From the IMG/VR virus record IMGVR_UViG_3300047491_000179, positions 1-42,027 of that record: a DNA stretch of 42,027 bases. One strand, given 5' to 3'. A model generated the notes under the pieces. That model did not search any database. It worked only from the letters and a program-made list of their open reading frames with translations, and was not told the origin of the DNA. The position numbers and the translations under genes were made by a program. Each line of letters opens with the position of its first letter. The stretch's first letter is position 1. The stretch comes from a virus. Lineage: Duplodnaviria; Caudoviricetes. Shown one piece after another: positions 1 to 42,027 of the stretch.

Positions 1-255
1 TAAGCCCAACCATGCACAAAGAACTCAACCGAATACATAAATCTCTCCCTTCGATATAAACTCGAGTATGTCGTCGACCTCCTTTTTCAAACATTCCTGT
101 GGTATCCACTTGTCGTCTACGTTGACCATGTCAATCCATCTTGCGAGAGCAATCCATTGTGCACCGCTCAACTTCTTTGAACTGCTCACGCCGAAAAGAA
201 ATTTTATGACCTCCTTTCTCGCGTCATCGCTACCAGCCATTCTATTCAGCGTGCC
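1..255. repeat. Terminal direct repeat / circular overlap, copy 1
   Basis: 1-255 matches 41773-42027 except A128 vs G41900. Confidence 0.97.
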
Positions 256-4281: not shown

Positions 4282-4611
4282 TTAATGTCGCCGTCCTTCC
4301 TCCAATGACGGCGGTATTTCTATGTATAACGCATTGCCTAGCAGGTACCCCTCAATCAGGCAATCTGCCCCGCGCAGGTTAGCCCACCTAACGTATTTGT
4401 CGATTGCGGTAGCCACCGTTTCTGAGCCCACTATCAAATACATTCTGTATAATCCTTTTTTTAGCTCTGGCAATTTGCTGATTGCCGTCAATACTATGCC
4501 ATTATGTTCGCCCATGATGCACCTTTCATTGCAGTTATCAATCATATCTCTCTCGGCAACCAATCTCATCACATCAGCATGAGCAAGATTGCCGTTTTCA
4601 ATTACATCCAT
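4282..4611 (-). CDS. Hypothetical protein
   Basis: 109-aa ORF in operon. Confidence 0.6.
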   Translation of the reverse strand: MDVIENGNLAHADVMRLVAERDMIDNCNERCIMGEHNGIVLTAISKLPELKKGLYRMYLIVGSETVATAIDKYVRWANLRGADCLIEGYLLGNALYIEIPPSLEEGRRH

Positions 4612-4790
4612 CCATTGTTCTTTGTTTCTATATTGGACACCTCCTCGTCTGGTATTAGCCCCTCGTATGACGGGTCGTAATCGTCATCGGTGTCGTTGCA
4701 AACATGAGGGCAGTCATCTGGTACAGGCAACCCCCATGTATCATCACAATCGCAGTCACATACATCACCGCAAAATGGGCACTCGTGCAT
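4602..4790 (-). CDS. Small Cys/Asp-rich acidic protein
   Basis: [17 protein letters not shown]...CPHVC; RBS GGAGGT. Confidence 0.65.
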   Translation of the reverse strand: MHECPFCGDVCDCDCDDTWGLPVPDDCPHVCNDTDDDYDPSYEGLIPDEEVSNIETKNNGWM

Positions 4791-5515
4791 CACTCCACCT
4801 CCTGCATTATCTCTAACAACTCCAATCGCCCACAACGCGCCTTGCCATTTGTGTTGTATGGCACAACAACATTCGGCAGGTCAATCCAGCGTATCCGACA
4901 ACGCCATATCGTTACTCCCTGATAATATTTTTGTATCCACGCCAACGTTGCGAAATTCACCCCACAACCACAATCCACTGTGGGAAGAGGATTGACCACC
5001 TCGGTGATAAATTCGCCGGGGTTGATTGTCCAATGTACAGGGGATGTGTACTCGGTGTTGCCAATCGCTTTATAAACGATATACCCCAAATCATCAGCCC
5101 GAAAATTATTCGCCAACCAGTTTGCCGGGTTGAGTAATCCATTAGCCCCACTCAGGTCAGCCCCGGTCAGGTCAGCCCCGGTCAGGTTAGCCCCGGTCAG
5201 GTCAGCGCAATACAGTTTAGTCTCGGTCAGGTCAGCCCTACTCAGGGTAGCCTCTTTCAGGTTAGCCCCACTCAGGTCAGCCCCGCTCAGGTTAGCCCCG
5301 GTCAGGTTAGCCCCGGTCAGGTTAGCGCGACACAGGTTAGCCCCGGTTAGGTCAACGTGATACAGGTTAGCGTGATACAGGTTAGCCCAGCTCAGGTTAG
5401 CCCCACTCAGGTTAGCCCCGTGCAGGTTAGCCCCGTGCAGGTCAACAACTTCATCTTGTAATATGTCTTTCAGGCATTTGCCATTTATAATAATCTCTTC
5501 AATGGTTCTCATCAC
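4790..5515 (-). CDS. Pentapeptide repeat protein with C-terminal domain
   Basis: About 20 A(N/D)Lxx repeats. Confidence 0.92.
5140..5445. repeat. 15-bp tandem repeats encoding the pentapeptides
   Basis: caggtYagccccRSt repeated. Confidence 0.9.
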
Positions 5516-5533
5516 TCCACCTCTCCATTCTGG

Positions 5534-5740
5534 TTAGCTCCAATACTCATCATGCAGGTTTATGATGGCAACGTCTGCCATTTCGGTTACGGTTGCGCTC
5601 GTCCTTAGCGACCAGACACGCTCTATATAGCTCCACGTTCGGCTTAGAGCCTGCTCGCGGTCTTTAGCTTCGACCCTAACAAATTCTTTACAACACTGGT
5701 CTTCCCGCTTAATATCAATAAACATCGAATAAGTCTTCAT
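5534..5740 (-). CDS. Hypothetical early protein
   Basis: Start MKTYS after AAGGGAGCG. Confidence 0.6.
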   Translation of the reverse strand: MKTYSMFIDIKREDQCCKEFVRVEAKDREQALSRTWSYIERVWSLRTSATVTEMADVAIINLHDEYWS

Positions 5741-5998
5741 TTCGCTCCCTTTATGCATGCTTGCTTTAGTTTGATGTCCGGTGGCTATCATCAATCCGGT
5801 TTCCCTATACTATTTTGTACGATACTCTTTCACAACGTTAATTATCACCCATCTTATGCTCCTTCCTGCGAACGGTACCAAGCTATCTCACGGTTCTCGT
5901 CTAACATTGGCTTTCCTCGCCATCTCGCGATATTCGCTATCTATGTTCGTTGCGTGGTAAATAGTCATTTCGTCGCTCCTTTTTTTTACTCTGTCATC

Positions 5999-6028
5999 AT
6001 CTTACCACTTGCGATATATACAAGACAA
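5999..6028 (-). promoter_or_regulatory. Early promoter cassette copy with variant -35
   Basis: TTGTCT-18-TAAGAT with extended TGG; about 70 bp near-identical to 40465-40534. Confidence 0.7.
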
Positions 6029-6045
6029 GTGCTAACTGGAACAAA

Positions 6046-6071
6046 TACGGGCAATCTCGCGATTGCCCGTA
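6046..6071 (-). terminator. Intrinsic terminator-like hairpin
   Basis: tacgggcaatc/gattgcccgta 11-bp stem followed by TTTGTT on the minus strand. Confidence 0.6.
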
Positions 6072-6093
6072 ATCATATACTTCATTTATTCTA

Positions 6094-6561
6094 TTACGCG
6101 AACTCTCCCTCACGATTCACAACCCGCGACCCATGAAATACGCGTATCTGGTCTAACGTGTAACGCCCGTGCCCGTTAGAGGCGGCGCCCACCCAATACC
6201 ACGCCATCTTCTTCGAGCTATACTTGAGCCCAAGTGCTTTCAACTGCCCTTTCACAGAATACGTGTCACCTGTCACCCAAATCCACGTACCGCAGATTTC
6301 CACGATGATGTCGCGCAATTTTAGCAATTCCAATATCGTCTTGCGCAGACGTTCGTCTACGCTCTCGACTTCCTCGTAATACGCTGTCGATTGATTGGGC
6401 TTACTAGCTCTCGCGAACATTCGACACGCGACTGTATACTCTGCGTTTATATCCTGCATCGTCCTGACGTCGCCCCCCATGTCGGGGTGGTGTTTTCTCG
6501 CCAAATCGCGATAACGTGCTCTCACCTCATCCGCGTTCTTGCATCCAGTAAACCATTTCAT
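6094..6561 (-). CDS. J-domain (DnaJ-like) phage protein
   Basis: YRDLARKHHPDMGG...MQDINAEY, plus C-terminal EICGTWIWVTG domain. Confidence 0.88.
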   Translation of the reverse strand: MKWFTGCKNADEVRARYRDLARKHHPDMGGDVRTMQDINAEYTVACRMFARASKPNQSTAYYEEVESVDERLRKTILELLKLRDIIVEICGTWIWVTGDTYSVKGQLKALGLKYSSKKMAWYWVGAASNGHGRYTLDQIRVFHGSRVVNREGEFA

Positions 6562-6562
6562 C

Positions 6563-6991
6563 TCAGTCTACCTTTTTGTACGGGCAATATTTCTCGTAAA
6601 GTTCTTTTGCGACCGACGGTTCGACTTTCTTCATCATAGCTTCGATGTTCTTTCTCGCTTTCTCGCCGCTACTATATACTCCGTAGTCGTCGCTCATCTG
6701 ATACCACCAATCATGGTGCCGTAACGTCAACTCCAACTTTTCTACGTCATTTTCAGGCTTCACCCACACGATGTAGAAGCTGCTCATCGACATTTCACCG
6801 ATTGACTTGTCATGAATCCAACCCTCCTTCTGCATGATATTCCATGCGTTAGCCAAGCTACCCCTCTTGCCATCTTCCCACCCATCACCTACAATCGCTA
6901 TAAATGCGTCGTAGTCGTCTTGGGTTCTCGCTACAAACCAGTTCGACTTATAATCCTTCGCGTTCTCGATACGTACGTTAATCTCTTTCAT
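6563..6991 (-). CDS. Hypothetical early protein (HDWxYxxSDD motif)
   Basis: Start MKEIN after AAAGGAG. Confidence 0.65.
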   Translation of the reverse strand: MKEINVRIENAKDYKSNWFVARTQDDYDAFIAIVGDGWEDGKRGSLANAWNIMQKEGWIHDKSIGEMSMSSFYIVWVKPENDVEKLELTLRHHDWWYQMSDDYGVYSSGEKARKNIEAMMKKVEPSVAKELYEKYCPYKKVD

Positions 6992-7512: not shown

Positions 7513-8334
7513 CTACAAAACTGCTGTAAAACTCACGCCAGCGTTGAAGTAGGCGAACCGAGCATCTAACCACCGTGAGCACTGCGCTATACGCGGCTGT
7601 CTGTGGTGTTTTGAAATACCAAGGTACTTCTTGAATGCCACCAGACTAACCTTCACGTCTTTCAGGTTCAGGTACTTGCCCTTAGCGGTATCCACCAGAC
7701 TGAGCATCAATACAACCCAATTCAAGACCTTGTCCGCTTCGGTCGTCCCGCTGTGCTGGCGAAATTCAATCGTCCCATGACGCCCGTAAGCGCACAAATT
7801 CACTTTATGGTACCGCATATCATTCGCATCATAGTCCCACGGTCTTTCAAACATCTCAATGACGTCAGTGACGACTTTGCTCTTGCCCTGCCTTGCGACC
7901 CGCATGAACTCGCTGACTGAACGGCAATATCTGTTCGCGTTCCCTCTCCGGCTTTCAGGAACTATCGCATCAAACATCTTCTCCCAACGTCCGTAAGCCG
8001 CTGTGACTGACGCTATTTCTTTTCGGCTCATATCACGAGCGTCAACATGAACGTGCAGACCGCACTTTTTATCGACCTTCGCACCAATCAACGTCAACGC
8101 TTTGCACACTTTCTCGACTTGATTGAACCCGTCCTCGCCACCTAAAACAGGGCTGACCACTTCAAAACCCGCCGAAGCGTCTGTAATCACCTTCCAATGT
8201 GTCTTGGTGGAGTGGTTGTAGCCTTCTGCGAAAGCCTGAACGCCCGCGTCTCGAATTGCTGACGCAATCTTTTCTTGTGACAACCCGTCGGTCAAAACCT
8301 CTATTTCAACTCCAAATTTGCGCTCGATATTCAT
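7513..8334 (-). CDS. Putative amidoligase enzyme (COOH-NH2 ligase type 2)
   Basis: FGVEIE, WKVITDAS, EVVSPVL, CGLHVHV, RYHKVNL, TIEFRQHSGT; start MNIER at 8334. Confidence 0.88.
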   Translation of the reverse strand: MNIERKFGVEIEVLTDGLSQEKIASAIRDAGVQAFAEGYNHSTKTHWKVITDASAGFEVVSPVLGGEDGFNQVEKVCKALTLIGAKVDKKCGLHVHVDARDMSRKEIASVTAAYGRWEKMFDAIVPESRRGNANRYCRSVSEFMRVARQGKSKVVTDVIEMFERPWDYDANDMRYHKVNLCAYGRHGTIEFRQHSGTTEADKVLNWVVLMLSLVDTAKGKYLNLKDVKVSLVAFKKYLGISKHHRQPRIAQCSRWLDARFAYFNAGVSFTAVL

Positions 8335-8386
8335 GTCTGGCTCCTTTTTTTTATGAAACGCTTGTCCGTTTTGCTTACCTGCCTTT

Positions 8387-8415
8387 ATCATACCACCTTT
8401 TGTATATACATACAA
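8387..8415 (-). promoter_or_regulatory. Early promoter
   Basis: TTGTAT-17-TATGAT with extended TGG and TGTATATACA. Confidence 0.7.
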
Positions 8416-8529
8416 GTGTACTGGTAATACTGGTTTTACCCTAAAACACGAACACTCCAATAGGAGTGTTTGTTCATTTAAGTATCGTCTAGTTTATCTC
8501 ACGCTGTTTGTCGCATAATTAAAGCGACA

Positions 8530-24664: not shown

Positions 24665-24797
24665 CGCCAACCTCCTTGGCATCACGCTCTGCTTTTTTAT
24701 GCCCGTATGGCGCAGTAATCTCTTCGCCCCAAATCCGTGCCGTGGCTTGATTTGCTGTTTGTTTTTCATTTCGCTCAGGTGTATTCTTTTTACTCAT
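24609..24797 (-). CDS. Possible 62-aa protein directly after MuF-ART
   Basis: ATG overlaps the end of MuF; hydrophilic; overlaps the next gene by 56 nt. Confidence 0.35.
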   Translation of the reverse strand: MSKKNTPERNEKQTANQATARIWGEEITAPYGHKKAERDAKEVGDDTNGMEHKKTPVDKQAG

Positions 24798-26130
24798 AGG
24801 TTCCCTCAATTAGCATCGTCTCTCGATTGTTTTTCGTATATTTGCTGATAGCCGTAATCGTGATTTTAGCGTTTCTAGGAAGCAGAACCTCAGCTTCGGT
24901 GTTTATTCTAGACAGGTTGTTGGCATTGAGATATGCCGCTTTCGCGCCAGCCTTCGCTATGATGTTAAATTCTATACGGTAATTATTAGCGCTTAAGAAA
25001 TCATCTATCACACCACTCACCGCGGTTGTAGATAAGAATCCTTTGTCCCATATCGTGTCGCCAACTTTCACGACTCCATTTTCGATGTCGTTGTATAACG
25101 GCTCATGCGCTGTACCGCGTTTCAATAGTACGTCAAAGGGCAACTGGGTTTTATCAATCGCCGCGTCCAAAAGCTTTGTCTGCTTGGCCGCGTCAGGATA
25201 CCTAGGGTTACTGTAATCTTCATCTCTAGCGCAGGCGTTTATGCCTCCATATGCAATACCCGTATAATCCGAGATTGCAGTTTGCTCGTCAAATGTAAGG
25301 TTGTCTGCCCATTGTTGGTACGAAGGTATCAATGCTAAGTCCGCGTCATCCACGTCGGCGTATTCTTGATACTGCCCATCTCCCTGTGGTGCAGACAGCG
25401 GCTCAGGTGGCACATTTTCTGCAGCTATAGCGTTCGCCTCTGTTGTCTCCGTAAAACTCATTTCGCAGTTGCACCTTGGGTGCATCGGCGGCTTGATGTC
25501 GTAATCGCTTAGTTTGTATGGCGACTCGCTAGCCTTGCTTGCGCAGTCATCACAAGTATTTTCATAAAGAGGAACCCAGACCCAATGGTCCACGCCTATT
25601 GTTTCCATAACATCCGTCATTACTAAAGCCGATAGCCGTGTCGTTTCTGTTATCGCGATACTTCTCGCTCGCTTTTCATCGAATAGTTTGCGCATTCTTG
25701 CCTCTAACGCTTCCCAATCCTCTTTAGGGTCGACTACCCATTCAGCGATGCCAGTTCGCAATACGTCCTGCGTGTTAGCCGTTATACCATCTATGTAAAT
25801 GCCCAAAGTATTTGCATAGTATCGCATTTTGTCGGCTACGTCATACTCAAAATCTTTGTTTTTGTCATGCCAGTACTCTTGTTCGGGCGTCACTATAGTT
25901 TTTGCCGCTCTCGAAAAAGCTTCTGTCATTCCTTCTTTGAATGTAGTACTCCATTCTTCCCAAACGTCAGGATTATCGAACATGTCTTTCTTCAGGGTTT
26001 TCATGCCTTTGAGTTCTGCTAATACCACGCGCCATTGCTTTTGCAACAATCCATACGCGGCATCATACACCTGACGCTCTGCTTCTTTACGCGCCTTCTT
26101 CTTTTTGTTTCTGCGTATGGTTTCCTTCAC
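24790..26130 (-). CDS. MuF/SPP1 gp7-like minor head protein with C-terminal VIP2-like ADP-ribosyltransferase
   Basis: RARSIAITETTR, PPMHPRCNC; YT...INA, LKRG, GFLSTT, EAEVLLPRN. Confidence 0.9.
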   Translation of the reverse strand: MKETIRRNKKKKARKEAERQVYDAAYGLLQKQWRVVLAELKGMKTLKKDMFDNPDVWEEWSTTFKEGMTEAFSRAAKTIVTPEQEYWHDKNKDFEYDVADKMRYYANTLGIYIDGITANTQDVLRTGIAEWVVDPKEDWEALEARMRKLFDEKRARSIAITETTRLSALVMTDVMETIGVDHWVWVPLYENTCDDCASKASESPYKLSDYDIKPPMHPRCNCEMSFTETTEANAIAAENVPPEPLSAPQGDGQYQEYADVDDADLALIPSYQQWADNLTFDEQTAISDYTGIAYGGINACARDEDYSNPRYPDAAKQTKLLDAAIDKTQLPFDVLLKRGTAHEPLYNDIENGVVKVGDTIWDKGFLSTTAVSGVIDDFLSANNYRIEFNIIAKAGAKAAYLNANNLSRINTEAEVLLPRNAKITITAISKYTKNNRETMLIEGTYE

Positions 26131-26132
26131 GT

Positions 26133-28646
26133 TTACCCTTGCATATTCGGCATCACGCCCGTTTCCAATAATAACTTAGCTCGTTCTAAAGCTTTATCCT
26201 GCGCTGTTTCTCCAACGAGCTCTTTGATTTCATCCCACACCGCTTTATCTTTGACACAAGCCTTCAACGCCATGACGACCTCTTTTGGCAGTTGCTTGCC
26301 AGCCATCGCTTCCACAAACGGGCTTGTCTGTAAATAATCGTCTTCGGGAAACCCCAGACCGTTATCAATTAATATCATTCGCTTGTCGTCGTCTGGATGC
26401 GTGCGATAATTTCCTGTATGCCTGTCGGTTTGACACATAATAAAATCTAATGTGCCAGCTTTCGCCACCCATAGCGTGTCGTATTCGCTCACGTCCTCAG
26501 ACGGCTTTGAGCCTTTCACGTAATACACCACAGCACCCGCTTCCTTGTTGTACTCGGTAACGAATGCCACAGGCACAAGATAAAATTGCAATAATCGGTC
26601 TAACAAATATGCGGCTTCTTCCCTCAGGTATTGCCCACCGCCAACACGCTCAATTAATGTATCGACTTCGCCACCCTCTGGCTTCCATAGCGCAGGTACA
26701 GGTGTCATCCCGTCTTGTTTCAAAGCAACAATGTCGAGCGAATTTGCATGGTGGTCGTTCGGATACGGTATATCCGCAATGTTCACAACCTGAGCCCCAT
26801 AATAGCCATCATCTTCTGCTGATACGCCCACGCCTTTCTGCGTTTCCACCAACTGGCTTAGTAAGGTGTAATAGCTCGGATTCTCTTTTAGATGCGCTAA
26901 CGCAATACGCCCTTCTATCATCGGGTCGCCCTGCGTAATGTCTTCGTGCTCTTGCTCTTCCTGCAACCCCAACCTAAATTGCTCGAGGTCTATTTCATCC
27001 CATTTCACGCCAAGCGCATCTCCTATTTCCCTAGCCCTCGCTGTATTTATTTTAGCTTTTGGAGCAAACTTTCCACCGTGCTGGTGCGGGTGTTGCATCT
27101 GTACGCTTATGAATTTGGTTGTTAGTCTGCCATCATTCAGCATCGTTGCGGCACTATCACGGTTCTTTTCGTCTTGCTCCGCGTCCTTCTCTTTTTCTCC
27201 AGACGCGAGATAATCGCTAAGTTTTATCAAACCCCCACCAGACACCATGAACCGTTCATCGCCACCGTCTATCGGTTCTCTGCCCATCTCGGACAGCGCA
27301 TCGTTCAACGTAATGACGCCTGACCTAAATAAGTCCAATGTATTCTTGGTGTGGATTTGTGGGTCTATATTCTCTGCCACCTGTCCCAGCTCGAACTTGT
27401 CTGTAATCCCAAACCTGCCGAATATCTCGTTGAGGCATCCTTCTAGATATAGCTTCAACGGTGACAATCCCATGCGATACAACGTGTTTTGCATCATGTC
27501 GCCGAAGCCCTTCCCACCCAAGCCAGAGCCAGGCATCTTCCCCCACTCTGACGGAGGTATGCCGTAAGCCAAACTTAGGTTATCTCTTGCCTGCTCATAC
27601 AATGTTTTCGGGAAGTCTGGCTTCTTCGTAGGTACGTAATTGAACCCGCTCGGCACCAGTCTAATGCGATTCCTTTCCGCTAAACCGCTCATCTGTCTGG
27701 CGTTTATCGTCTGTTCGTAGAGGTCTATCTGCTCTAACGTCCAGCCCTCAGGCGCTTGCATAAGCCCTTCCGGCATGTTCCCTTCCCTGTAATGCGCTAA
27801 CTCAAAGCCTGAGATGTTTGCGATTATAAGCACCCATGCCCATGACATTTCTATAGGTGACATTCCATACGGCGCGTTATAACGCCGGAACCGCGGCCTG
27901 TACCACATTTCATCTTGCGAGTACCACCCGAACGGCGTTCCTTTTATGACCTGCACAAACGCTGGCGTACTAGGGGCTTTGAATAGATTATTCACATCCA
28001 AATACTTGTTTAATTTACTCTGGTAGTCTGGCGCATTTATGATAACCGGGTCTTTTGCGTCTGGTAGTGGAAGCTCGCCGTGCTGGTCAACAAGCACGAA
28101 GATTGTACTCCCGTCCACATATCTAAGGTTTTTCAGTTTTCCGAGCGTTTGTTCTATGTACAACGTCCCCGCGTCAAACACCAGCGCGGATTGCAAGAAT
28201 CTAGATGCCCACACAGTAAATGGGTTGACGCCGTCGGGTCTATCCAAGAATCCCTTATAAGGATGGTCTACAATTTGATTACCGTCTTTATCCACAAACC
28301 TTGGCGTAAAATTCGTGACTTCCTTCACCAACGTATTTACACACATCCTGATTTCTGATACATTCTCATAGGCTTCCGCAAGAGCGGCAAACGGCATCAG
28401 CCCGTAATTTGTCCGTGGTTGTATCGTTGCATTCACAGCCACAGGATAATCTATTTCTCGCGGTATGCCTTCCTCTATCGGATGGCTTATCGGTCTGATG
28501 GGCCAGCCCGGCGCATACGTTGTCTGTAACCATGCATCTGGCAACGGTGCCACATTTGGCTTAGGTGCTGGCGGCACCGGAGCTGTCGGTATTGGCACCT
28601 GCATTACTTGTGCCATAGCTTTCAATATGTCATTACGTATGCCCAT
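26133..28646 (-). CDS. Portal protein with C-terminal DUF5661-like and kinase-like domains
   Basis: LRYVDGSTI, YGMSPIE, GNMPEG, AYGIPPSEWG, GVITLNDA...PIDGGD; then EEQEH...IALAHLKE.P.YY; WKP, REEAAYLLD, DRHTGN, LIDNGLGF. Confidence 0.88.
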   Translation of the reverse strand: MGIRNDILKAMAQVMQVPIPTAPVPPAPKPNVAPLPDAWLQTTYAPGWPIRPISHPIEEGIPREIDYPVAVNATIQPRTNYGLMPFAALAEAYENVSEIRMCVNTLVKEVTNFTPRFVDKDGNQIVDHPYKGFLDRPDGVNPFTVWASRFLQSALVFDAGTLYIEQTLGKLKNLRYVDGSTIFVLVDQHGELPLPDAKDPVIINAPDYQSKLNKYLDVNNLFKAPSTPAFVQVIKGTPFGWYSQDEMWYRPRFRRYNAPYGMSPIEMSWAWVLIIANISGFELAHYREGNMPEGLMQAPEGWTLEQIDLYEQTINARQMSGLAERNRIRLVPSGFNYVPTKKPDFPKTLYEQARDNLSLAYGIPPSEWGKMPGSGLGGKGFGDMMQNTLYRMGLSPLKLYLEGCLNEIFGRFGITDKFELGQVAENIDPQIHTKNTLDLFRSGVITLNDALSEMGREPIDGGDERFMVSGGGLIKLSDYLASGEKEKDAEQDEKNRDSAATMLNDGRLTTKFISVQMQHPHQHGGKFAPKAKINTARAREIGDALGVKWDEIDLEQFRLGLQEEQEHEDITQGDPMIEGRIALAHLKENPSYYTLLSQLVETQKGVGVSAEDDGYYGAQVVNIADIPYPNDHHANSLDIVALKQDGMTPVPALWKPEGGEVDTLIERVGGGQYLREEAAYLLDRLLQFYLVPVAFVTEYNKEAGAVVYYVKGSKPSEDVSEYDTLWVAKAGTLDFIMCQTDRHTGNYRTHPDDDKRMILIDNGLGFPEDDYLQTSPFVEAMAGKQLPKEVVMALKACVKDKAVWDEIKELVGETAQDKALERAKLLLETGVMPNMQG

Positions 28647-29890: not shown

Positions 29891-29919
29891 AATATATACC
29901 ATTCCTGTTCATCGGTCAA
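29891..29919 (-). promoter_or_regulatory. Candidate promoter for head genes
   Basis: TTGACC-17-TATATT. Confidence 0.45.
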
Positions 29920-31381
29920 CTGGCAGTTTCACGCCTGACTTTTCACTATACTCTAACAAGTCCGCTGGTACGCTTTCTGCCCTGATTACTCCTTTTTTGT
30001 ATCGCTCAAGCTCTTCGCTCGTTACCGTATACGGGCTTGCAAGTTCGTTGAACGCGCCACTTGTCGCATCCATGATGTCGTCGTGCTTCATGTCGGGTTG
30101 TGAATGCATGTGGTTTATCCATTCATCATTCCATGAGCCCGCCAACAAGTACACGTTCCCAGCCTCTGATTGAGCGGCAAATGGCTTCGCTCTCGATATT
30201 TTGTCACCGCTTGGGGCAACACCCCTTGCGTCAAACCCGATAAGCAAACCCGCAATATACAAGCTGTCTCTTTTGCCGCTCGCGCCACCTTCGCGCTCCC
30301 ACCTGACTACGTATCTTGTCCCCATCTTACTCGCCTCGTATAAATCCTGCCTCGCAAGGTTGGCAATCGCTCTGTCTGTGTCCGTAGGCGATATCCTTTG
30401 CGCCGTCATGTCCAGAACGTAAAACTTACCATCCACAAACCGCATTTTTACGGACGCGGTATAGTCGGGGTCACTTCCCTTGAACTTCGCCTCGGTAGCG
30501 GCTAAATCCCAAAAACGGCAATCAACACCGCCGTTCGGTACTGCGTCTACGATTTTATACCATTCTCGGTTGAACAACTTGCCCTCCGCTTCGCGTATCT
30601 TCCAGTTCCCGCCTCGTATTGGGTCGCCTAACAACCTCTCTCTATCCACCAATGGCAATGCCTGCAACGACGCCAAATAGCCCGGGTCTTTCGCAGTAAG
30701 TATCGGATTGTCATAGATAGTGAACGGCACAAACGTGACTGTCTTTGGGTCTTTATCTGGGAACTGCTCTCTCAACTCCTGTTTCGTGTCAGCCCAATAC
30801 ATCTCTCCGTTATCGCCTCGCACAAACGCGCGTATCTTCCCCGCCCTCTCCATGTCTGCGTACCCGTCGGGCGCTATCCACCAATCCAAAAATTTTGCCA
30901 ACCAATTCGGCTCTGGGTTCGCGGTAGCTCTTAGGTACGAGTTGACACTACACACGCTCCTGTTCCTCGACAACATGTAAAAGAACTGCCTCTCGGTAAA
31001 CGTTTCTAACTGGTCGAACATTAGCAACGCGACCTGCGCCGATTTCCAATTGCTTAATGATTGCTCGTTGGTTAAATGCCCAAAACCTATTTTGGACTTC
31101 GCGAATCGATACTCCAACTTACCAGCGTTCGGCACACCGCCGAACATTGGGTATAGTTCGTTCGCGTAATCCCAAACGCCACCTGTTTTTGTAATTTCTG
31201 GGTATGTCCGTCTTAGCATGACGGAATTAAATTTGTTTGTCTGGAAATGGCGCAACGGCTCCAATAACAATGCGTAAGTTTTTCCCCCGCCAGCGGCACC
31301 TCCCCCTATAGCTATGTCCGCTTCACTAGCTAAGAACTCCTCTTGCTTGTCATGTAGCCGAATCTCAACATCGTCATTCAC
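29909..31381 (-). CDS. terL: Terminase large subunit
   Basis: GGAAGGGKT, LRRTYPEI, ATANP, FWDLAA, DYTA, HDDIMDA. Confidence 0.93.
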   Translation of the reverse strand: MNDDVEIRLHDKQEEFLASEADIAIGGGAAGGGKTYALLLEPLRHFQTNKFNSVMLRRTYPEITKTGGVWDYANELYPMFGGVPNAGKLEYRFAKSKIGFGHLTNEQSLSNWKSAQVALLMFDQLETFTERQFFYMLSRNRSVCSVNSYLRATANPEPNWLAKFLDWWIAPDGYADMERAGKIRAFVRGDNGEMYWADTKQELREQFPDKDPKTVTFVPFTIYDNPILTAKDPGYLASLQALPLVDRERLLGDPIRGGNWKIREAEGKLFNREWYKIVDAVPNGGVDCRFWDLAATEAKFKGSDPDYTASVKMRFVDGKFYVLDMTAQRISPTDTDRAIANLARQDLYEASKMGTRYVVRWEREGGASGKRDSLYIAGLLIGFDARGVAPSGDKISRAKPFAAQSEAGNVYLLAGSWNDEWINHMHSQPDMKHDDIMDATSGAFNELASPYTVTSEELERYKKGVIRAESVPADLLEYSEKSGVKLPVDR

Positions 31382-31763
31382 GCTTGTTGTCCGGTAAATA
31401 CAATGTGACTTTTACAGGCTCAGTTGTTCTCAAACTCACATCGCTCTGCACTTCGGTTCTTTCCACCCATCCGCATTGGGTTTTCAGGAAGAATATCATA
31501 GCTGTCACATGCCCCTGCACGTTCGGGTCTAAACACGAACGATAAAACTCGCTTTCTACCGCGTCCTTCATCTCGTCACGCGAATCTTCCATGACTTCTA
31601 ATAGCTTCTTATGCGCAAATATAAATCTCCGCACATGGCTTCGTGACCAGCCGACCGCTTTTGCTACCGACGACACGTTACCACGCTTCTCTTTGATTTT
31701 AGCTTCCAGCAAAGCAACGGTTAATTTCTTCCTTTTTATGGTGTCCTTTTGTTCTTCTGACAT
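31374..31763 (-). CDS. terS: Terminase small subunit
   Basis: HTH GNVSSVAKAVGWSR, AMIFFLKT..GWVE; directly upstream of terL. Confidence 0.8.
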   Translation of the reverse strand: MSEEQKDTIKRKKLTVALLEAKIKEKRGNVSSVAKAVGWSRSHVRRFIFAHKKLLEVMEDSRDEMKDAVESEFYRSCLDPNVQGHVTAMIFFLKTQCGWVERTEVQSDVSLRTTEPVKVTLYLPDNKRE

Positions 31764-31779
31764 TGTCGTCCTTCTTTAT

Positions 31780-32496
31780 CTAAAAGCTCAAACTCACCGT
31801 GTACTCTGAGTTTTTTCTCGCTATTCTGTGAATGAAGCCGGGATACATCTTTATCAGCATCTCGATTGCCTGCTCTTCTACTTCGTGCGTTCGATAATCC
31901 TTGCATCCTCCCTCATCCTCCCAATGGCTGTTCACCCAATATACGTATCGTATTCCCGCCAGACCGCCGTCCTCTTTGATGCAACGTAGGCATATCTCGT
32001 AGTCTTCCTTGACCTTAAATCTTTCGTCGAACCGTATCCCTGTGTCATTTCTGATGCCCATCATCGACGCGGTGACATACGTCCTGAAGTTTATCGGCTT
32101 GTATGGAAAGGTTCCCTTCAAGCTACCGTCTGTGTTCACACCCCATATCCGGTAATTCATTTGCTCGGTGAGGTCGAACATACGTATGAACTCTCTCTCC
32201 CATTGTTCGCTCGTCATACTGTACGTTTTTGCAAAACTCTCGAATAGCCGAAAGTACCCCTGTACCTTTACGTCATCGTCGACCATGACAACCCAATCAT
32301 CATTACAATTGTCGAGTACCCAATTTCTTGTAGCTGTAATACCCTTTACGCTTGAAGGCACGCCGACAACCCTTTCACCATAAACACGAACATAATCATC
32401 ACGCTCATATTCAGGCACGAATAGCACACCGTTCTTTAGTATCTTGAGCGTTTTGACGCGTCCTGCTCTGCCTTTACTTGGTATCGCGATTAGCAT
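31780..32496 (-). CDS. TAGT/GREB1-like GT-A glycosyltransferase
   Basis: IAIPSKGR, RNWVLD, MVDDD, KEDYEICLR, EGGC. Confidence 0.8.
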   Translation of the reverse strand: MLIAIPSKGRAGRVKTLKILKNGVLFVPEYERDDYVRVYGERVVGVPSSVKGITATRNWVLDNCNDDWVVMVDDDVKVQGYFRLFESFAKTYSMTSEQWEREFIRMFDLTEQMNYRIWGVNTDGSLKGTFPYKPINFRTYVTASMMGIRNDTGIRFDERFKVKEDYEICLRCIKEDGGLAGIRYVYWVNSHWEDEGGCKDYRTHEVEEQAIEMLIKMYPGFIHRIARKNSEYTVSLSF

Positions 32497-33121
32497 TGAC
32501 CCGCTCCATAAACTTCTCTGCCGTAATCAACCGCTCTGCTCCAGCGTCATTGAAAGCCGACCCCTCTTTGTATCCCCCACGCCTAACCATCCCCAATCCT
32601 AAATAGGCTCGGATAGCGTCAAAATCCTCGTTTGTTTTGCAAACAATCATCACGTACTCTTGCTCTGGCAATAACTGCACAGACCGCTTCAGCAAAACCT
32701 CTTCGGTTTTATCCTCGACTTCTTTATGTAACTTGTCTAACGTGTAAACAATCCCCTCATTTTCGGTTTGTATGCCATCTATCAGACTGTTCAAAGCTTT
32801 CTGGTCTGCATCTGCCATTTCTGCAATCGGGTCTAGTGTCGCAAGCACTATATCTTCTTCCTCTGGCGTAAGCTTGACATACTTCACGGGGACTTCCTTT
32901 TCTTTATGCTTTTTAGCAAGCTCATACCGCAAGTGCCCGTCAATGAGATTTCCTGTTACTTCATTCACAATCAATTCCTGCACCCAACCGACGGTTTCCA
33001 ACACGCCGCTCAATGCAACTTGCTGATATTCTGGATGTAGTCGCCAGTTTTTAGGGTTTTTCTTAATATCCTCTACGGGCATAACTCCGTTACCCGTAAT
33101 TCGATTTCTCCACTCAGCCAT
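32474..33121 (-). CDS. ParB-N domain protein
   Basis: NPKNWRLH, GWVQELIVN..TGNLIDGHLR. Confidence 0.88.
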   Translation of the reverse strand: MAEWRNRITGNGVMPVEDIKKNPKNWRLHPEYQQVALSGVLETVGWVQELIVNEVTGNLIDGHLRYELAKKHKEKEVPVKYVKLTPEEEDIVLATLDPIAEMADADQKALNSLIDGIQTENEGIVYTLDKLHKEVEDKTEEVLLKRSVQLLPEQEYVMIVCKTNEDFDAIRAYLGLGMVRRGGYKEGSAFNDAGAERLITAEKFMERVNANRDTK

Positions 33122-33974
33122 TTCTCACCGCCCACTCCTGCAACTGTTTCCACTTGGGTTCGTCACCCTTGAACGCGTTTTCTATAATCTCTGCCGTCTC
33201 TGCCGGAACGCCCGACACGTCAAATATATCACGCAACGGCACCCACTCTTTATCCACCTCTTGCCCGAGGTATTCAAGGCACACCCTACTCATCATACCC
33301 AATATCACACCGAACGCGTGAATGTCATACTCTTTTCCCAACCGACGAATCAGGTACTTCAACAGCTTTATCCGCTCTAACTCGGCATGGTACATCTCGG
33401 TTTCCTCTAATGAGAAATTCTCTACCATTTGTTCGCAAGCTTTCTTGAACAAAGCCTCATCACTAGGAAAGAGGTTTATCCATATCGTTTTGTACTCTAA
33501 ACCCAAGTCTACCGTTTCGGCACGGGCTTGTTCTAGCTTCTCGTACAAAGCATTGGAATCCAAGAACGCCTCCAGCCTCGACTCGATGTCACTAATCGTC
33601 TCGTATATCTCTTTCAACGTGTCTGGGTCATCCGACCCCTGAATGGAATTATGCGCCAACTGCTTACCTTTTATCTGGTCACGCGACAGGTTAGACACGT
33701 CGACCAACACAAACAACTCTTCTAATCCAGCCATCTTGGCGGCTCTCACCCTGTGATGCCCTGAAACAATTTCGATAGTCTGCTTACCACCGTTATCTTT
33801 AAGCGCGCAAAACGGGACAGACTCCAACCTTCCATCCCGCCCTATCGTCATCGCCAACCTTTGTATCGCATCGCCTGACATCACCCGAGCGTTTTTGTTC
33901 TGCTCCCGCAGTTCGTTGATGCTCGCTTTCCACAACTCTAACCCATGCCCTAATTCGTACACTTTCTCAGCCAC
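33114..33974 (-). CDS. ParB-N domain protein
   Basis: KNARVM, IVSGHHRVRAA, QLAHNSIQG. Confidence 0.88.
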   Translation of the reverse strand: MAEKVYELGHGLELWKASINELREQNKNARVMSGDAIQRLAMTIGRDGRLESVPFCALKDNGGKQTIEIVSGHHRVRAAKMAGLEELFVLVDVSNLSRDQIKGKQLAHNSIQGSDDPDTLKEIYETISDIESRLEAFLDSNALYEKLEQARAETVDLGLEYKTIWINLFPSDEALFKKACEQMVENFSLEETEMYHAELERIKLLKYLIRRLGKEYDIHAFGVILGMMSRVCLEYLGQEVDKEWVPLRDIFDVSGVPAETAEIIENAFKGDEPKWKQLQEWAVRNG

Positions 33975-35346
33975 GCGATTTCTCCTTCCACTTTTCTAGC
34001 CAATCGCTCAATAGTTCACCCCAATGTTTTCCATTCCACTCGGTTTCATACTGCAAAAGGAAGCCACCGTTCTTTTCTTCTCGCTTTATCAACTTCATAA
34101 CGCCCCTGTCGGTTTTACCCTCGTGCCTCTTTGTGGGGCTGGATGTCCTGATACCTTTAGGCTCGCGCATCTCGAGGATAATGTACTTCGAGAGTATCCA
34201 ATCCCTAAAGTCAACACTCGTCAACATAAGCATAAATAGCTTACCTATCCTCATATATCTTTCGCACGTTTTGCTTATGCCATAGACTTCATATATGTAC
34301 TCGACCTTACCCAAATACACATCACGCACAGCCAGCCCCCACACGGTTGTAACCCTACCGTCTATCAGCATAACACCGTTCAAATCCGCAACCGTCAAAC
34401 CTAACCCGTGAACAAACAAATCGCGGTAATACTCAGCTTCATTGGCTTTGATTAACTCAAAACTTATCTTGCTGTCTGGCCTGATTTCCTGTTCTTGATA
34501 TATCTCGTATGGAGCGGTTGGCACTTTTTTGACGGTATTCTGAATAAACCTATCGTCCAAATCCCTGTTTGTCAGAACGTATGAAGTCCTCTTCCCTCTA
34601 ACCTCTGCGAACACTTTGTGCCATTTGTCGCTGAATCTGTCAGGATAAGATGTCCATATGCACATCAAAGATGGCACATTGGTCATGCCGTCGAACGTTT
34701 CACTTAATTCATTTGGCCCCAATTCTTTTATCGGCTCCGGTTTCCAACCGAGTAAAGTTGCTGGGTCTTCATACGATTTTGTGTATACCCTGCTCCCACT
34801 AGGCGGGGTCATATAAAACAACGTGTTCCCTTCGATTGCTTTCATCTCAGTTAGCACGTCACGGACGTCCCTTCTTTCGTACTTCAACCCAGCGAGCGAC
34901 GTCCTCATGTCTATCAAATCCCTGACCATGTTATCCACATAAATTCTTGCGTTGGTTTTCAATTCCCTCTGCACCGACGCCATGTACGGGTTTTTCGGCT
35001 GTACCCTTAAATAATGTAAAGCTAACAAATACCACGCGGTGTATTCCATATCACTCGCGCCAACAGGCGGTGCAAAGCAACCCAAGCTGTCGGGCATGGA
35101 TAGATTTAGAGACCGCACGTTTTTGCTCCCGTCTAAACAGTACCCTATCAATGTGGAAAACAACGAGAAGTCACTTGTTTCGATTTTACTGGCAGGATAA
35201 CCCGCCGACACCAACGCACTCACCGTCGAGAACGAGCCGACGCATGGGTGTATGACGCGCTCTGGATTAGTCGACGAAACAAGCGCGGACATAAACTGCC
35301 GCGCTTTAGAATTTGTAACACCCTCGAACAAACGGAATGGGTTCAT
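33967..35346 (-). CDS. Degenerate DNA adenine methylase-like domain fused to a putative GNAT-like domain
   Basis: Motif I-like IHPCVGSFS, ETSD, motif IV-like FYMTPP; C-terminal VMLIDGRVTTVWG...YMRIGKLFM. Confidence 0.5.
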   Translation of the reverse strand: MNPFRLFEGVTNSKARQFMSALVSSTNPERVIHPCVGSFSTVSALVSAGYPASKIETSDFSLFSTLIGYCLDGSKNVRSLNLSMPDSLGCFAPPVGASDMEYTAWYLLALHYLRVQPKNPYMASVQRELKTNARIYVDNMVRDLIDMRTSLAGLKYERRDVRDVLTEMKAIEGNTLFYMTPPSGSRVYTKSYEDPATLLGWKPEPIKELGPNELSETFDGMTNVPSLMCIWTSYPDRFSDKWHKVFAEVRGKRTSYVLTNRDLDDRFIQNTVKKVPTAPYEIYQEQEIRPDSKISFELIKANEAEYYRDLFVHGLGLTVADLNGVMLIDGRVTTVWGLAVRDVYLGKVEYIYEVYGISKTCERYMRIGKLFMLMLTSVDFRDWILSKYIILEMREPKGIRTSSPTKRHEGKTDRGVMKLIKREEKNGGFLLQYETEWNGKHWGELLSDWLEKWKEKSRG

Positions 35347-35357
35347 AATATCTATAG

Positions 35358-35430
35358 TCCGGACGGGACTGTCTTGACAGCCCGTTTCTTCACCGAGTGG
35401 TGAAGCGTACTAGCCCTATACGACGTCCGG
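35358..35430 (-). ncRNA. tRNA-like cloverleaf RNA (tRNA-Glu-like) with non-canonical anticodon and T loops
   Basis: CCGGACG TC GTAT AGGGCTA GTAC G CTTCA CCACTCGG TGAAG AAAC GGGCT GTCAAGAC AGTCC CGTCCGG A; all four stems pair. Confidence 0.75.
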
Positions 35431-35856
35431 TCAGAACAGCGTCATCTGCTGTATCGTTGGTTTTCCCTCCACGATTTCTTGCGCTACGACGGGGTCATAC
35501 TCCTCAATCACTTCTCCCGTCCGCTCCTGCCACCACTCCGCGAAATACCGCCTGTGGCACGTTTTGCCTTCCTTGATGTTCTCGAAGCACAATAATACCA
35601 AATCTTTGCCGTCGTTGCGTTTGCTGACCACATTTAAATACCGCTTGATTTTATCTACACCATACATGTCTAACTTAGCCCAATACTTCGCCTTGAAGTT
35701 ATCATTCCACGGTATACCCCACGGCGCCAGCATACCGCATGACTCCGTCACCGCAAAACCCGTAGGAAATTTTGGCTTGTACATCGATATTTGTACCTTG
35801 ACCGCGTCAAAATTCTTCAACTCTTTGCACGTGAACCGACTGGTAAATATCTTCAT
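35431..35856 (-). CDS. DUF488-family protein
   Basis: MKIFTSRF, LAP, LVLLCFE...CHRRYFAEW; probably a leaderless start at 35856. Confidence 0.8.
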   Translation of the reverse strand: MKIFTSRFTCKELKNFDAVKVQISMYKPKFPTGFAVTESCGMLAPWGIPWNDNFKAKYWAKLDMYGVDKIKRYLNVVSKRNDGKDLVLLCFENIKEGKTCHRRYFAEWWQERTGEVIEEYDPVVAQEIVEGKPTIQQMTLF

Positions 35857-35862
35857 ACTCAC

Positions 35863-35891
35863 ATGATACATCTTTCTGCATATAAATGCAA
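35863..35891 (-). promoter_or_regulatory. Promoter for the modification/packaging operon (predicted leaderless transcript)
   Basis: TTGCAT-17-TATCAT, 6 nt before the ATG. Confidence 0.6.
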
Positions 35892-35980
35892 GTAAATTGG
35901 TCTAAACAGCCGCTATTTATGCAAACTACGCCCGTATTCTGGTAATATCGGGCATAATTTGCAATTGCTATATCACTCTA

Positions 35981-36457
35981 TCAATCGCCTTCGTATTTCG
36001 GCGGCTCTGGCAACTCCATCCACTCCAAAATAACCTCCTTTATCCACCCCCATTTATCTTTTTGCTTGTCGTAACGCGACACAACAACGACATCTTGCGG
36101 ACTTGCCTCAAACTTCATGTGAAGCGCGTAAAGCCCGCTCCTCAATGGAGCCTCGGTGATTTTGTGCCAAGTCATGTTCCCTAAACAATAATCCGCTAAC
36201 ACCTTAGTCGATTTCTCGCTATCGCCACGCATAATATTTAATGCCATCTGCGCAGACAACAAATCGACTTTCATTTGTTCGTTTACTTCACGGAGTCTTT
36301 CCAACTCATGTACTATGCTATAGGTCACCCGAATTGGGTCAACACGTGTTACGGTGCCGTCCGCAGACCATGCGCCCAACATAGCGTTTAATATCGCTCC
36401 AACAACAGCAACCTCTTCTTTGCATCTATCCTGATTGCTTCTGCCTATCTCGTCCAT
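35981..36457 (-). CDS. Hypothetical protein with DUF551-like C-terminus
   Basis: Ends VILEWMELPEPP. Confidence 0.65.
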   Translation of the reverse strand: MDEIGRSNQDRCKEEVAVVGAILNAMLGAWSADGTVTRVDPIRVTYSIVHELERLREVNEQMKVDLLSAQMALNIMRGDSEKSTKVLADYCLGNMTWHKITEAPLRSGLYALHMKFEASPQDVVVVSRYDKQKDKWGWIKEVILEWMELPEPPKYEGD

Positions 36458-41448: not shown

Positions 41449-41810
41449 TTCGTCTCCTCTGCCTTTTTCACAACAACATGCACACCAATTCTGCTAGCAT
41501 CTTTTATCTGTGTCTTCGTCAGAATCAACCTGACTACTCGCTTGTCGTTCTTAAATATAGAACCCTGTAGCCCATCCAATACACACTTCGACAAGTTGTC
41601 TAAATCCGCAAGGTCACGCTTCACATAAAAATCAAGGTGTACCTCTACAGCCTCGTCGAGCAAATCACCGTCATGGGCTTCCTTAGCCGCGCACCATATC
41701 GCATTCTGCCATTTCTTTACGTTCTTGGTTTGGTAAGAATGTCCAGCCGCGTAACGAAAACTTTGCTTGGCATAAGCCCAACCATGCACAAAGAACTCAA
41801 CCGAATACAT
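41445..41810 (-). CDS. rusA: RusA family Holliday junction resolvase
   Basis: DLDNLSKCVLDGL...NDKRV. Confidence 0.9.
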   Translation of the reverse strand: MYSVEFFVHGWAYAKQSFRYAAGHSYQTKNVKKWQNAIWCAAKEAHDGDLLDEAVEVHLDFYVKRDLADLDNLSKCVLDGLQGSIFKNDKRVVRLILTKTQIKDASRIGVHVVVKKAEETK

Positions 41811-42027
41811 AAATCTCTCCCTTCGATATAAACTCGAGTATGTCGTCGACCTCCTTTTTCAAACATTCCTGTGGTATCCACTTGTCGTCTACGTTGACCG
41901 TGTCAATCCATCTTGCGAGAGCAATCCATTGTGCACCGCTCAACTTCTTTGAACTGCTCACGCCGAAAAGAAATTTTATGACCTCCTTTCTCGCGTCATC
42001 GCTACCAGCCATTCTATTCAGCGTGCC
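41773..42027. repeat. Terminal direct repeat / circular overlap, copy 2 (ORF 41797-42012 duplicates the 3' part of 25-363)
   Basis: Direct sequence identity with the window start. Confidence 0.97.

Follow-up and report, generated by a model that had tools for sequence, protein, structure and literature searches.

The window analysed here is the whole of the IMG/VR virus record IMGVR_UViG_3300047491_000179 (42,027 nt), judged by its gene content to be a tailed phage. On its minus strand, a tRNA-like RNA (35355..35430 including its tail) is placed between a DUF488-N3a-like gene (35431-35871; the start may be 35856) and a gene for a 459-residue protein (33967-35346) in which a Dam-like methyltransferase fold (residues 5-263) is fused to a GNAT fold (residues about 287-440). 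A gene for a ParB-N protein, ParB1 (33114-33974), follows. I lean, a little beyond even chances, towards the reading that the fusion is a Mom-like enzyme which would move glutamate from the phage's private tRNA onto a base of the phage DNA. This somewhat favoured mechanism draws on the predicted folds, the cloverleaf of the RNA, its linkage to the enzyme, the tRNA elements kept and lost, and the covariation of enzyme residue 403 with the RNA type. An initial annotation, made from the letters of the window, had listed these elements together with a second ParB-N gene, a TAGT glycosyltransferase gene and the terminase genes terS and terL. All of them are present in that order on the minus strand, the genes being identified by Pfam and PHROG matches.

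The RNA in the window escapes the standard tools: ARAGORN, at default and lowered settings, and Rfam, at the gathering cut-off and at E 10, reported nothing at its position. However, a covariance model built from 29 RNAs of relatives, with the window RNA excluded, found it at 41.9 bits (E 3.2e-10; the next match scored 13.3 bits). This match was obtained with the search filters off and was missed under the default filters; the window RNA falls in the lowest-scoring group against the model. All four stems of the cloverleaf are fully paired (7/7, 4/4, 5/5, and 5/5), with a two-sided change at pair 12-23, and the folding energy (minimum free energy) has a z of -2.8. The first base of the RNA directly follows the DUF488 stop codon, and its end lies 8 nt ahead of the ATG of the enzyme. 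The tRNA-like RNA of the initial annotation was thus borne out, and the view that it is a real tRNA-derived gene travelling with the enzyme is supported by these comparisons. The alternative that it is an attP remnant was rejected, since the whole cloverleaf is kept and the RNA lies near a terminase, not an integrase.

Positions 1-73 of the RNA correspond to 35430-35358. The RNA has C1-G72, A73, a CUA tail, an 8-nt anticodon loop with CUC, and an 8-nt T loop; A33 precedes the CUC and G37 follows it. According to the accessible part of PMC9976931, the tRNA-Glu identity set consists of the major structural elements U11-A24, U13-G22:A46, and a missing residue 47, plus U35 and C36, with G1-C72 and U2-A71 as weak elements, and A37. 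U11-A24, U13-G22:A46, the absence of base 47, U35, and C36 are all kept in the window RNA. It therefore resembles an elongator tRNA-Glu in its cloverleaf and in its elements for glutamyl-tRNA synthetase (GluRS), but it lacks the 7-nt anticodon loop with U33, the CCA end, and the TTC T-loop, in place of which it has GUCAAGAC. With the synthetase elements kept and the ribosome features lost, the RNA looks as one would expect if selection had acted on its charging but not on decoding.

Is this pattern common among the relatives? Two-sided changes were found at 19/21 pairs across the RNAs of 29 relatives. The anatomy was counted over 62 parsed RNA rows, from which L118 (a host tRNA-Cys) and L039, L052, and L053 (mis-parsed, with the 1:72 pair read by eye) were set aside; the mis-parsed loop of L037 was kept in the counts, and L144-L175, duplicating earlier loci, were not counted. 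Most rows have a Glu/Gln-type D arm, and 47 of the 62 have a 4-nt variable loop. Among the 44 seven-nt anticodon loops, CUC is the commonest anticodon (18), CUG is the second (11), and U33 is retained in just 18, compared with 42/46 tRNAs in host controls from five genomes. The loop has 6 or 8 nt in 18/62 rows (8 nt in 12/62), and a CUA tail is found in 7/62. All 61 near-family rows have a purine at position 72 (C-G in 24, A.G in 22, U-A in 14, and one broken pair), with no G1-C72; in the host controls, G1 was present in 7/7 tRNA-Glu. The host tRNA-Gln also has the Glu/Gln D arm and U1-A72.

Linkage was counted over loci with room upstream, near-duplicates and some split genes included. Of 69 loci outside a clade of the Acidobacteria type (motif SVPHY), 57 have the RNA no more than 500 nt ahead of the enzyme gene, 4 have it farther away, and 8 have none. 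Of the 43 loci within that clade, 38 have no RNA, 4 have it at a distance of 1.3-2.4 kb, and 1 has it nearby. When 60 loci were retrieved with the protein as the sole query, ARAGORN at default settings made 20 calls, each on the strand of the enzyme gene and at most 417 nt ahead of it.

These counts bear on the unlikely alternative that the enzyme aminoacylates DNA from host aminoacyl-tRNA, as Mom does, while the phage RNA is a supplement or a decoy for anticodon nucleases. Variable anticodon loops would suit escape from such nucleases, and 38/43 loci of the Acidobacteria-type clade have no RNA nearby. Mom itself needs no phage tRNA, according to the available part of PMC13219725. On the other hand, the tight linkage of the RNA across unrelated phage types, the purine 72 kept across amino-acid classes, and the tracking of the RNA type by residue 403 argue against this alternative. 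Moreover, in L270 a DUF488-RNA pair lies on a separate contig of a genome whose enzyme is RNA-less, so that supply of the RNA in trans is possible.

Several loci have unusual RNA arrangements. The RNA is present in tandem copies in L024 (1519-1677) and in L027 (5796-5967), the latter also having two DUF488 genes. Metagenome-assembled genomes of Acidobacteria (L042-L046, L049, L050, L058, and L060) have several RNA-less enzyme copies, each after a conserved hairpin pair and a possible short open reading frame (ORF); the DUF488-RNA pair of L270 belongs to one of these genomes. L261 (G005:C297), in an Acidobacteria genome, has an array of 21 tRNA genes, several of them atypical.

The DUF488 protein tracks the RNA rather than the enzyme. 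Its match to DUF488-N3a (PF22751; E 2.8e-4) is under the Pfam cut-off, and the C95/C105-H106-R107 residues of the family are kept. The RNA was found in 40/41 DUF488 loci, the remaining locus having half an RNA, and DUF488 was found in 0/27 RNA-less loci with room. A second DUF488 subfamily lies beside the RNA in 9 more of the 42 loci scanned. No synthetase, amidotransferase, or CCA enzyme was found among 103 upstream ORFs of 42 loci. ParB1 (PHROG 7405), which has an intact SGHHR box, follows the enzyme gene within 700 nt in 92/117 loci.

The enzyme is a member of two Pfam families above their gathering cut-off of 27 bits, DAM-like-phage1 (PF22555; residues 7-263, 95.8 bits) and GNAT-phage-like (PF22559; residues 291-452, 54.5 bits). 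The family comprises 878 clusters at 50% identity. There was no PDB sequence match for the enzyme, no NCBIfam family matching it or DUF488, no Mom family in Pfam at E 0.1, and no close relative in a single-protein scan of viral contigs. The structure was predicted with a predicted local distance difference test (pLDDT) score of 88.6 for the full-length model and 90.2 for the C-terminal half modelled alone. In a structure search, residues 5-263 matched the DNA amino-methyltransferases Mcbe1 (Z 13.3), EcoDam (12.9), and DpnM (12.4), which are tied; Mcbe1 is presumably an N4-cytosine methyltransferase. Conservation was counted over 93 distinct full-length family members. The S-adenosylmethionine (SAM) pocket resembles that of the Dam class (EcoDam, DpnM, T4 Dam, and Mcbe1), with G37 and D59 invariant in 93/93 and D160 present in 91/93. 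In contrast, the motif IV (D/N)PPY of the Dam class never occurs in the family, which has NPPxY or SVPHY; it reads TPPSG in the window enzyme, just as the initial annotation had noted a catalytic motif changed to TPPS.

The changed motif leaves room for another rather improbable reading, in which the amino acid does come from the phage's own charged tRNA but ends up on a phage or host protein (ParB1, capsid, or a defence factor), on RNA, or on a small molecule. The tRNA-dependent GNATs act mostly on peptides, proteins, and lipids, as stated in the accessible part of PMC13219725; FemA (1lrz) is among the matches to the GNAT half (Z 8.6), and RNA and protein methyltransferases lie within 1-2 Z of Dam for the N-terminal half. 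However, the longest and best fold matches of this half are DNA amino-methyltransferases (Mcbe1, Dam, DpnM, and T4 Dam), and a ParB-N partner and a site before the terminase are typical of phage DNA-modification genes.

The initial annotation had also read the C-terminal region as GNAT-like and regarded this as its weakest link; the structural matches (VIA and Foldseek) are GNATs only, and the assignment holds. Mu Mom (8bv8) is the first VIA match to this half (Z 10.1, root-mean-square deviation 3.8, 142 aligned residues), but ordinary acetyl-CoA GNATs tie with it to within 1 Z unit, and it ranks 13th in Foldseek. H313 is invariant in the family, E353 is present in 90/93, and K/R411 in 93/93. 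By eye, H313 aligns with Mom H58 at the end of helix 1, while the positions of Mom R111, S124, and R151 read G356, G368, and the T405 region in a topology match made by eye, without superposition. The acetyl-CoA loop of GNATs has the motif Q/RxxGxG/A. Its glycine is missing in 93/93 family members, in which position 366, in the register of the predicted structure, is R, H, N, T, K, or F. This loss and the fusion to a DNA-methylase fold, together with the intact enzymes of the RNA-less clade, make it very unlikely that the GNAT half acetylates aminoacyl-tRNA in the manner of AtaT/TacT, with the phage RNA as a decoy antitoxin or substrate. GNAT toxins do target aminoacyl-tRNA (available part of PMC13219725), and the residue-RNA covariation described below would also fit substrate recognition. 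AtaT/TacT-type toxins were not among the 50 VIA matches listed, which excludes nothing. Two observations concern the gene itself: the public gene call for the enzyme begins later (376 residues, P0001), and L037 has a 795-codon frame (4330-6714) in which about 260 residues, possibly an intein, interrupt the Dam-like half; similar members of 746-749 residues exist.

It was revealed that the RNA type varies among the relatives. A Lys(CUU) version, missing from the annotation, was found in Faecalibacterium phage Brigit; a Lys call was obtained in 58 of the 80 loci resembling that of Brigit, and all of these RNAs start with C or A and end with G72-A73-CCA. ValentiniPuff has an Arg-like version, which was missed by annotation. 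In cluster W mycobacteriophages, the sole annotated tRNA-Gly sits directly ahead of the enzyme gene, and Gordonia phage Clawz has an unannotated Gly-like RNA. In 33/33 rows with a Glu/Gln (Glx) type RNA, S or C stands at residue 403, where strand beta5 of the predicted structure ends; in 9/9 non-Glx rows this residue is T, A, or I (Gly), Q (Lys), or E (Arg-like). It is the only column of the 459 that tracks the RNA type, and none of 5000 random labellings gave such a column, a control which ignores kinship; a tracking residue was expected beforehand. From the model, 403 is predicted to be a pocket residue, one that changes with the RNA type. A covariation of residue 414 (R/K with G72; N/S/H with A72), though appealing on chemical grounds, was dropped because it reflects a single tree split common to four other columns; the rule is also broken by cluster W, with R and C72. 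A SAM synthetase gene lies 2 kb upstream in Brigit.

These variants raise, more tentatively than the transfer of glutamate in the window, the possibility of a widespread phage code in which DNA modification is programmed by tRNA. An orthogonal tRNA of the phage's own, recognisable by its purine 72, would pick Glu, Gly, Lys, Arg, or perhaps Gln to be written on DNA by the Dam-GNAT fusion; the pocket and the tRNA would co-evolve, and DUF488 would mature or repair the tRNA.

Several results weigh against the proposed transfer. The window RNA lacks the Glu determinants G1-C72, U2-A71, and A37, having C1-G72, C2-G71, and a G after the anticodon instead, and it does not encode CCA. The RNAs of cluster W and Clawz have an ordinary G1-C72, and the RNA is missing nearby in 38/43 loci of the Acidobacteria type and in 8/69 others. 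The covariation at residue 403 amounts to five changes, with independent pairs agreeing in 3/3 to 4/4 (p 0.25-0.125). The Mom match is tied as described above, the profile comparison with Mom is not significant (hhalign probability 0.16%), and Mom R111 and S124 do not appear to be retained when the topologies are matched by eye. The motif IV of the window departs from the NPPxY and SVPHY of its own family.

Some of these features could mean that this copy is decaying, or that its methylase half is dead and its RNA no longer charged, while the family works as proposed. The TPPSG motif, A33, G37, the 8-nt loops, the CUA tail, and the place of the RNA in the lowest-scoring group would fit this. 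I consider it quite unlikely, since the four stems are fully paired with a two-sided change at 12-23, the 8-nt loops and CUA tails recur in the family, and H313, E353, S403, K411, R414, G37, D59, and D160 are intact in the enzyme.

How might the glutamate transfer proceed? Host RNases would excise the RNA, and the host CCA enzyme would repair the CUA tail. Host GluRS would then charge it via U11-A24, U13-G22-A46, the missing 47, and U35/C36. Since C1-G72 is not the U1-A72 amidation signal, Glu is expected rather than Gln. The RNA is likely kept off the ribosome, and purine 72, common to the Glu, Gly, Lys, and Arg versions, may be the mark by which the enzyme distinguishes its partner RNA from the tRNAs of the host. 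The Dam-like half would bind DNA and present an exocyclic amine, N6 of adenine more likely than N4 of cytosine; its pocket may still bind SAM, either adding a methyl group or only stabilising the domain. The GNAT half would transfer Glu to the exocyclic amine of the presented base. The modified base is predicted at +129.04 Da; it might rearrange as 6-NcmdA does, and host restriction would be blocked by it. By analogy with Mom, escape from restriction may be the purpose. ParB1 may serve as a nucleoside triphosphate-dependent helper on DNA, and DUF488 may act on the RNA.

The initial annotation had joined all six elements into one pathway, with possible further glycosylation, and had proposed to look for their co-occurrence across phage genomes. 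In the loci examined, DUF488, the RNA, the enzyme, and ParB1 do occur together, but TAGT does not join them. The TAGT gene of the window (PF20691; 31780-32496) scores 61.8 bits against a Pfam cut-off of 27.5, has the DDD motif, and keeps the invariant D73-D75; the second ParB-N gene, ParB2 (32474-33121), has PHROG ParB matches and no Pfam match. TAGT was found in 0/142 enzyme loci (66 with room) and not among 116 downstream ORFs of 35 loci. Conversely, in the best 80 of 363 TAGT loci, which were those examined, ParB2 lies upstream of TAGT in 80/80 and the enzyme in none (39 with room). Since the enzyme and TAGT never co-occur in the other loci examined, the window stacks a cassette of DUF488, RNA, enzyme, and ParB1 on another of ParB2 and TAGT. 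Judged from gene neighbourhoods, ParB2-TAGT is an independent second modification cassette in a hotspot before the terminase, and the counts show the glycosyltransferase as a passenger relative to the enzyme cassette. Both genes are ordinary members of the known and widespread phage ParB-N and TAGT cassette, 52-70% identical to many; what differs is their stacking behind the enzyme cassette, a combination found in none of the other loci examined. A single pathway in which TAGT glycosylates an acylated base is thus the least probable of the readings considered here, in spite of the single run of overlapping genes in this phage. A Pfam scan of 27 proteins, part of the set encoded by the window, revealed no TET/JBP dioxygenase that could partner TAGT.

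A coupling to packaging had also been proposed. The position agrees with this: terS (31374-31763; PHROG) and terL (29909-31381; Pfam and PHROG) follow on the minus strand, and a terminase follows in 23/35 loci scanned. However, in cluster W phages and Clawz the cassette lies away from the terminase, so that such a coupling is not needed.

Outside Mom, no modification of DNA from a charged tRNA is known to have been demonstrated. Mom moves Gly from host Gly-tRNA to N6-adenine, the product rearranging to 6-NcmdA (accessible part of PMC13219725), which confirms the glycyl-tRNA use mentioned in the initial annotation. The window enzyme resembles Mu Mom in the GNAT fold, the top VIA match, the phage context, and the histidine placed by eye at the end of helix 1; the use of aminoacyl-tRNA on DNA is predicted here. 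In contrast, Mom consists of one domain and accepts every isoacceptor of host Gly-tRNA, while the window GNAT is fused to a Dam fold and accompanied by its own tRNA, DUF488, and ParB. There is no detectable sequence likeness, and the amino acids suggested by the relatives are Glu, Gly, Lys, and Arg. By analogy, the enzyme likely works like Mom; with no sequence or profile likeness, it stands outside the Mom family. The non-proteinogenic tRNA-Gly of S. aureus, which is likewise altered to leave translation and feeds the GNAT-fold transferase FemABX, is another parallel; in the available part of PMC9976931, these are host genes for peptidoglycan, restricted to Gly and unlinked to a phage DNA-binding enzyme.

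The Pfam descriptions of PF22555, PF22559, and PF22751 name no RNA, donor, or product. These families were probably defined by Burroughs and Aravind 2023, who reportedly predicted the gene set at the protein level; that paper, Iyer 2013, or the supplements of the Mom paper may already mention the tRNA or such homologs. In a literature search outside which the probable Pfam-defining paper lay, no paper describing this tRNA-enzyme cassette was found. The cassette is not described in the accessible parts of PMC7824862, PMC12839542, PMC12419801, and 10.1101/2025.10.10.680097; the Taptic announcement lists a tRNA-Gly and a ParB without linking them (PMC5356062), and the available part of a Microbacterium survey lists no tRNA for ValentiniPuff (PMC7302621). 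What is new here is an RNA copy too divergent for tRNA finders and the passenger status of TAGT, the protein families being already in Pfam. If the proposed transfer is true, a family that brings its own tRNA and varies the amino acid would extend Mom-type chemistry to new bases, and the code would bring a number of DNA bases not yet described, along with an exchangeable system for placing amino acids on DNA. Such a family would also account for isolated, unusual phage tRNA genes as a class (annotated as ordinary tRNA-Gly in cluster W, and overlooked in the window, Clawz, ValentiniPuff, and Brigit), assign a role to DUF488 and to one clade of ParB-N proteins, and yield an enzyme of use as a tool. 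Since the cassette is present in cultured phages (cluster W mycobacteriophages, Clawz, and ValentiniPuff), it is directly testable.

The run from DUF488 to the terminase lies entirely on the minus strand, directly ahead of terS and terL, and its neighbours overlap by 8-23 nt or stand 16 nt apart. The tight coupling of the initial annotation therefore stands, while its single promoter was not recovered by a sigma-70 scan, whose 10 sites compare with an expectation of 9.8 and include none ahead of DUF488. By eye, a candidate sigma-70-type promoter, TTGCAT-17-TATCAT (35863..35891, minus strand, read from 35891 to 35863), was found under the scan threshold, ending 6 nt before the ATG at 35856; the DUF488 message would be leaderless if it is used. 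No Shine-Dalgarno sequence exists in 35347-35357 before the enzyme ATG. Since this ATG is 8 nt past the tRNA end, tRNA processing would yield a nearly leaderless message.

Near-identical DNA was found in lake and freshwater metagenomes from which the window may derive, and the region 31300-36200 has zero differences across three near-identical assemblies. About 255 nt are repeated at both ends of the window (1-255 and 41773-42027) with one mismatch, which suggests a complete circular genome, though the database entry gives it as linear, with 44% completeness. Elsewhere on the minus strand, 24790-26130 encodes a MuF-like head protein with an ADP-ribosyltransferase domain (PF03496, E 6.5e-24), a virion protein of the MuF-toxin type, and 26133-28646 encodes a portal protein with DUF5661 and a PI3/PI4-kinase-like domain (E 0.002). 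The early region has an Amidoligase_2 protein (7513-8460) and a pentapeptide-repeat protein (4790-5515), both on the minus strand.

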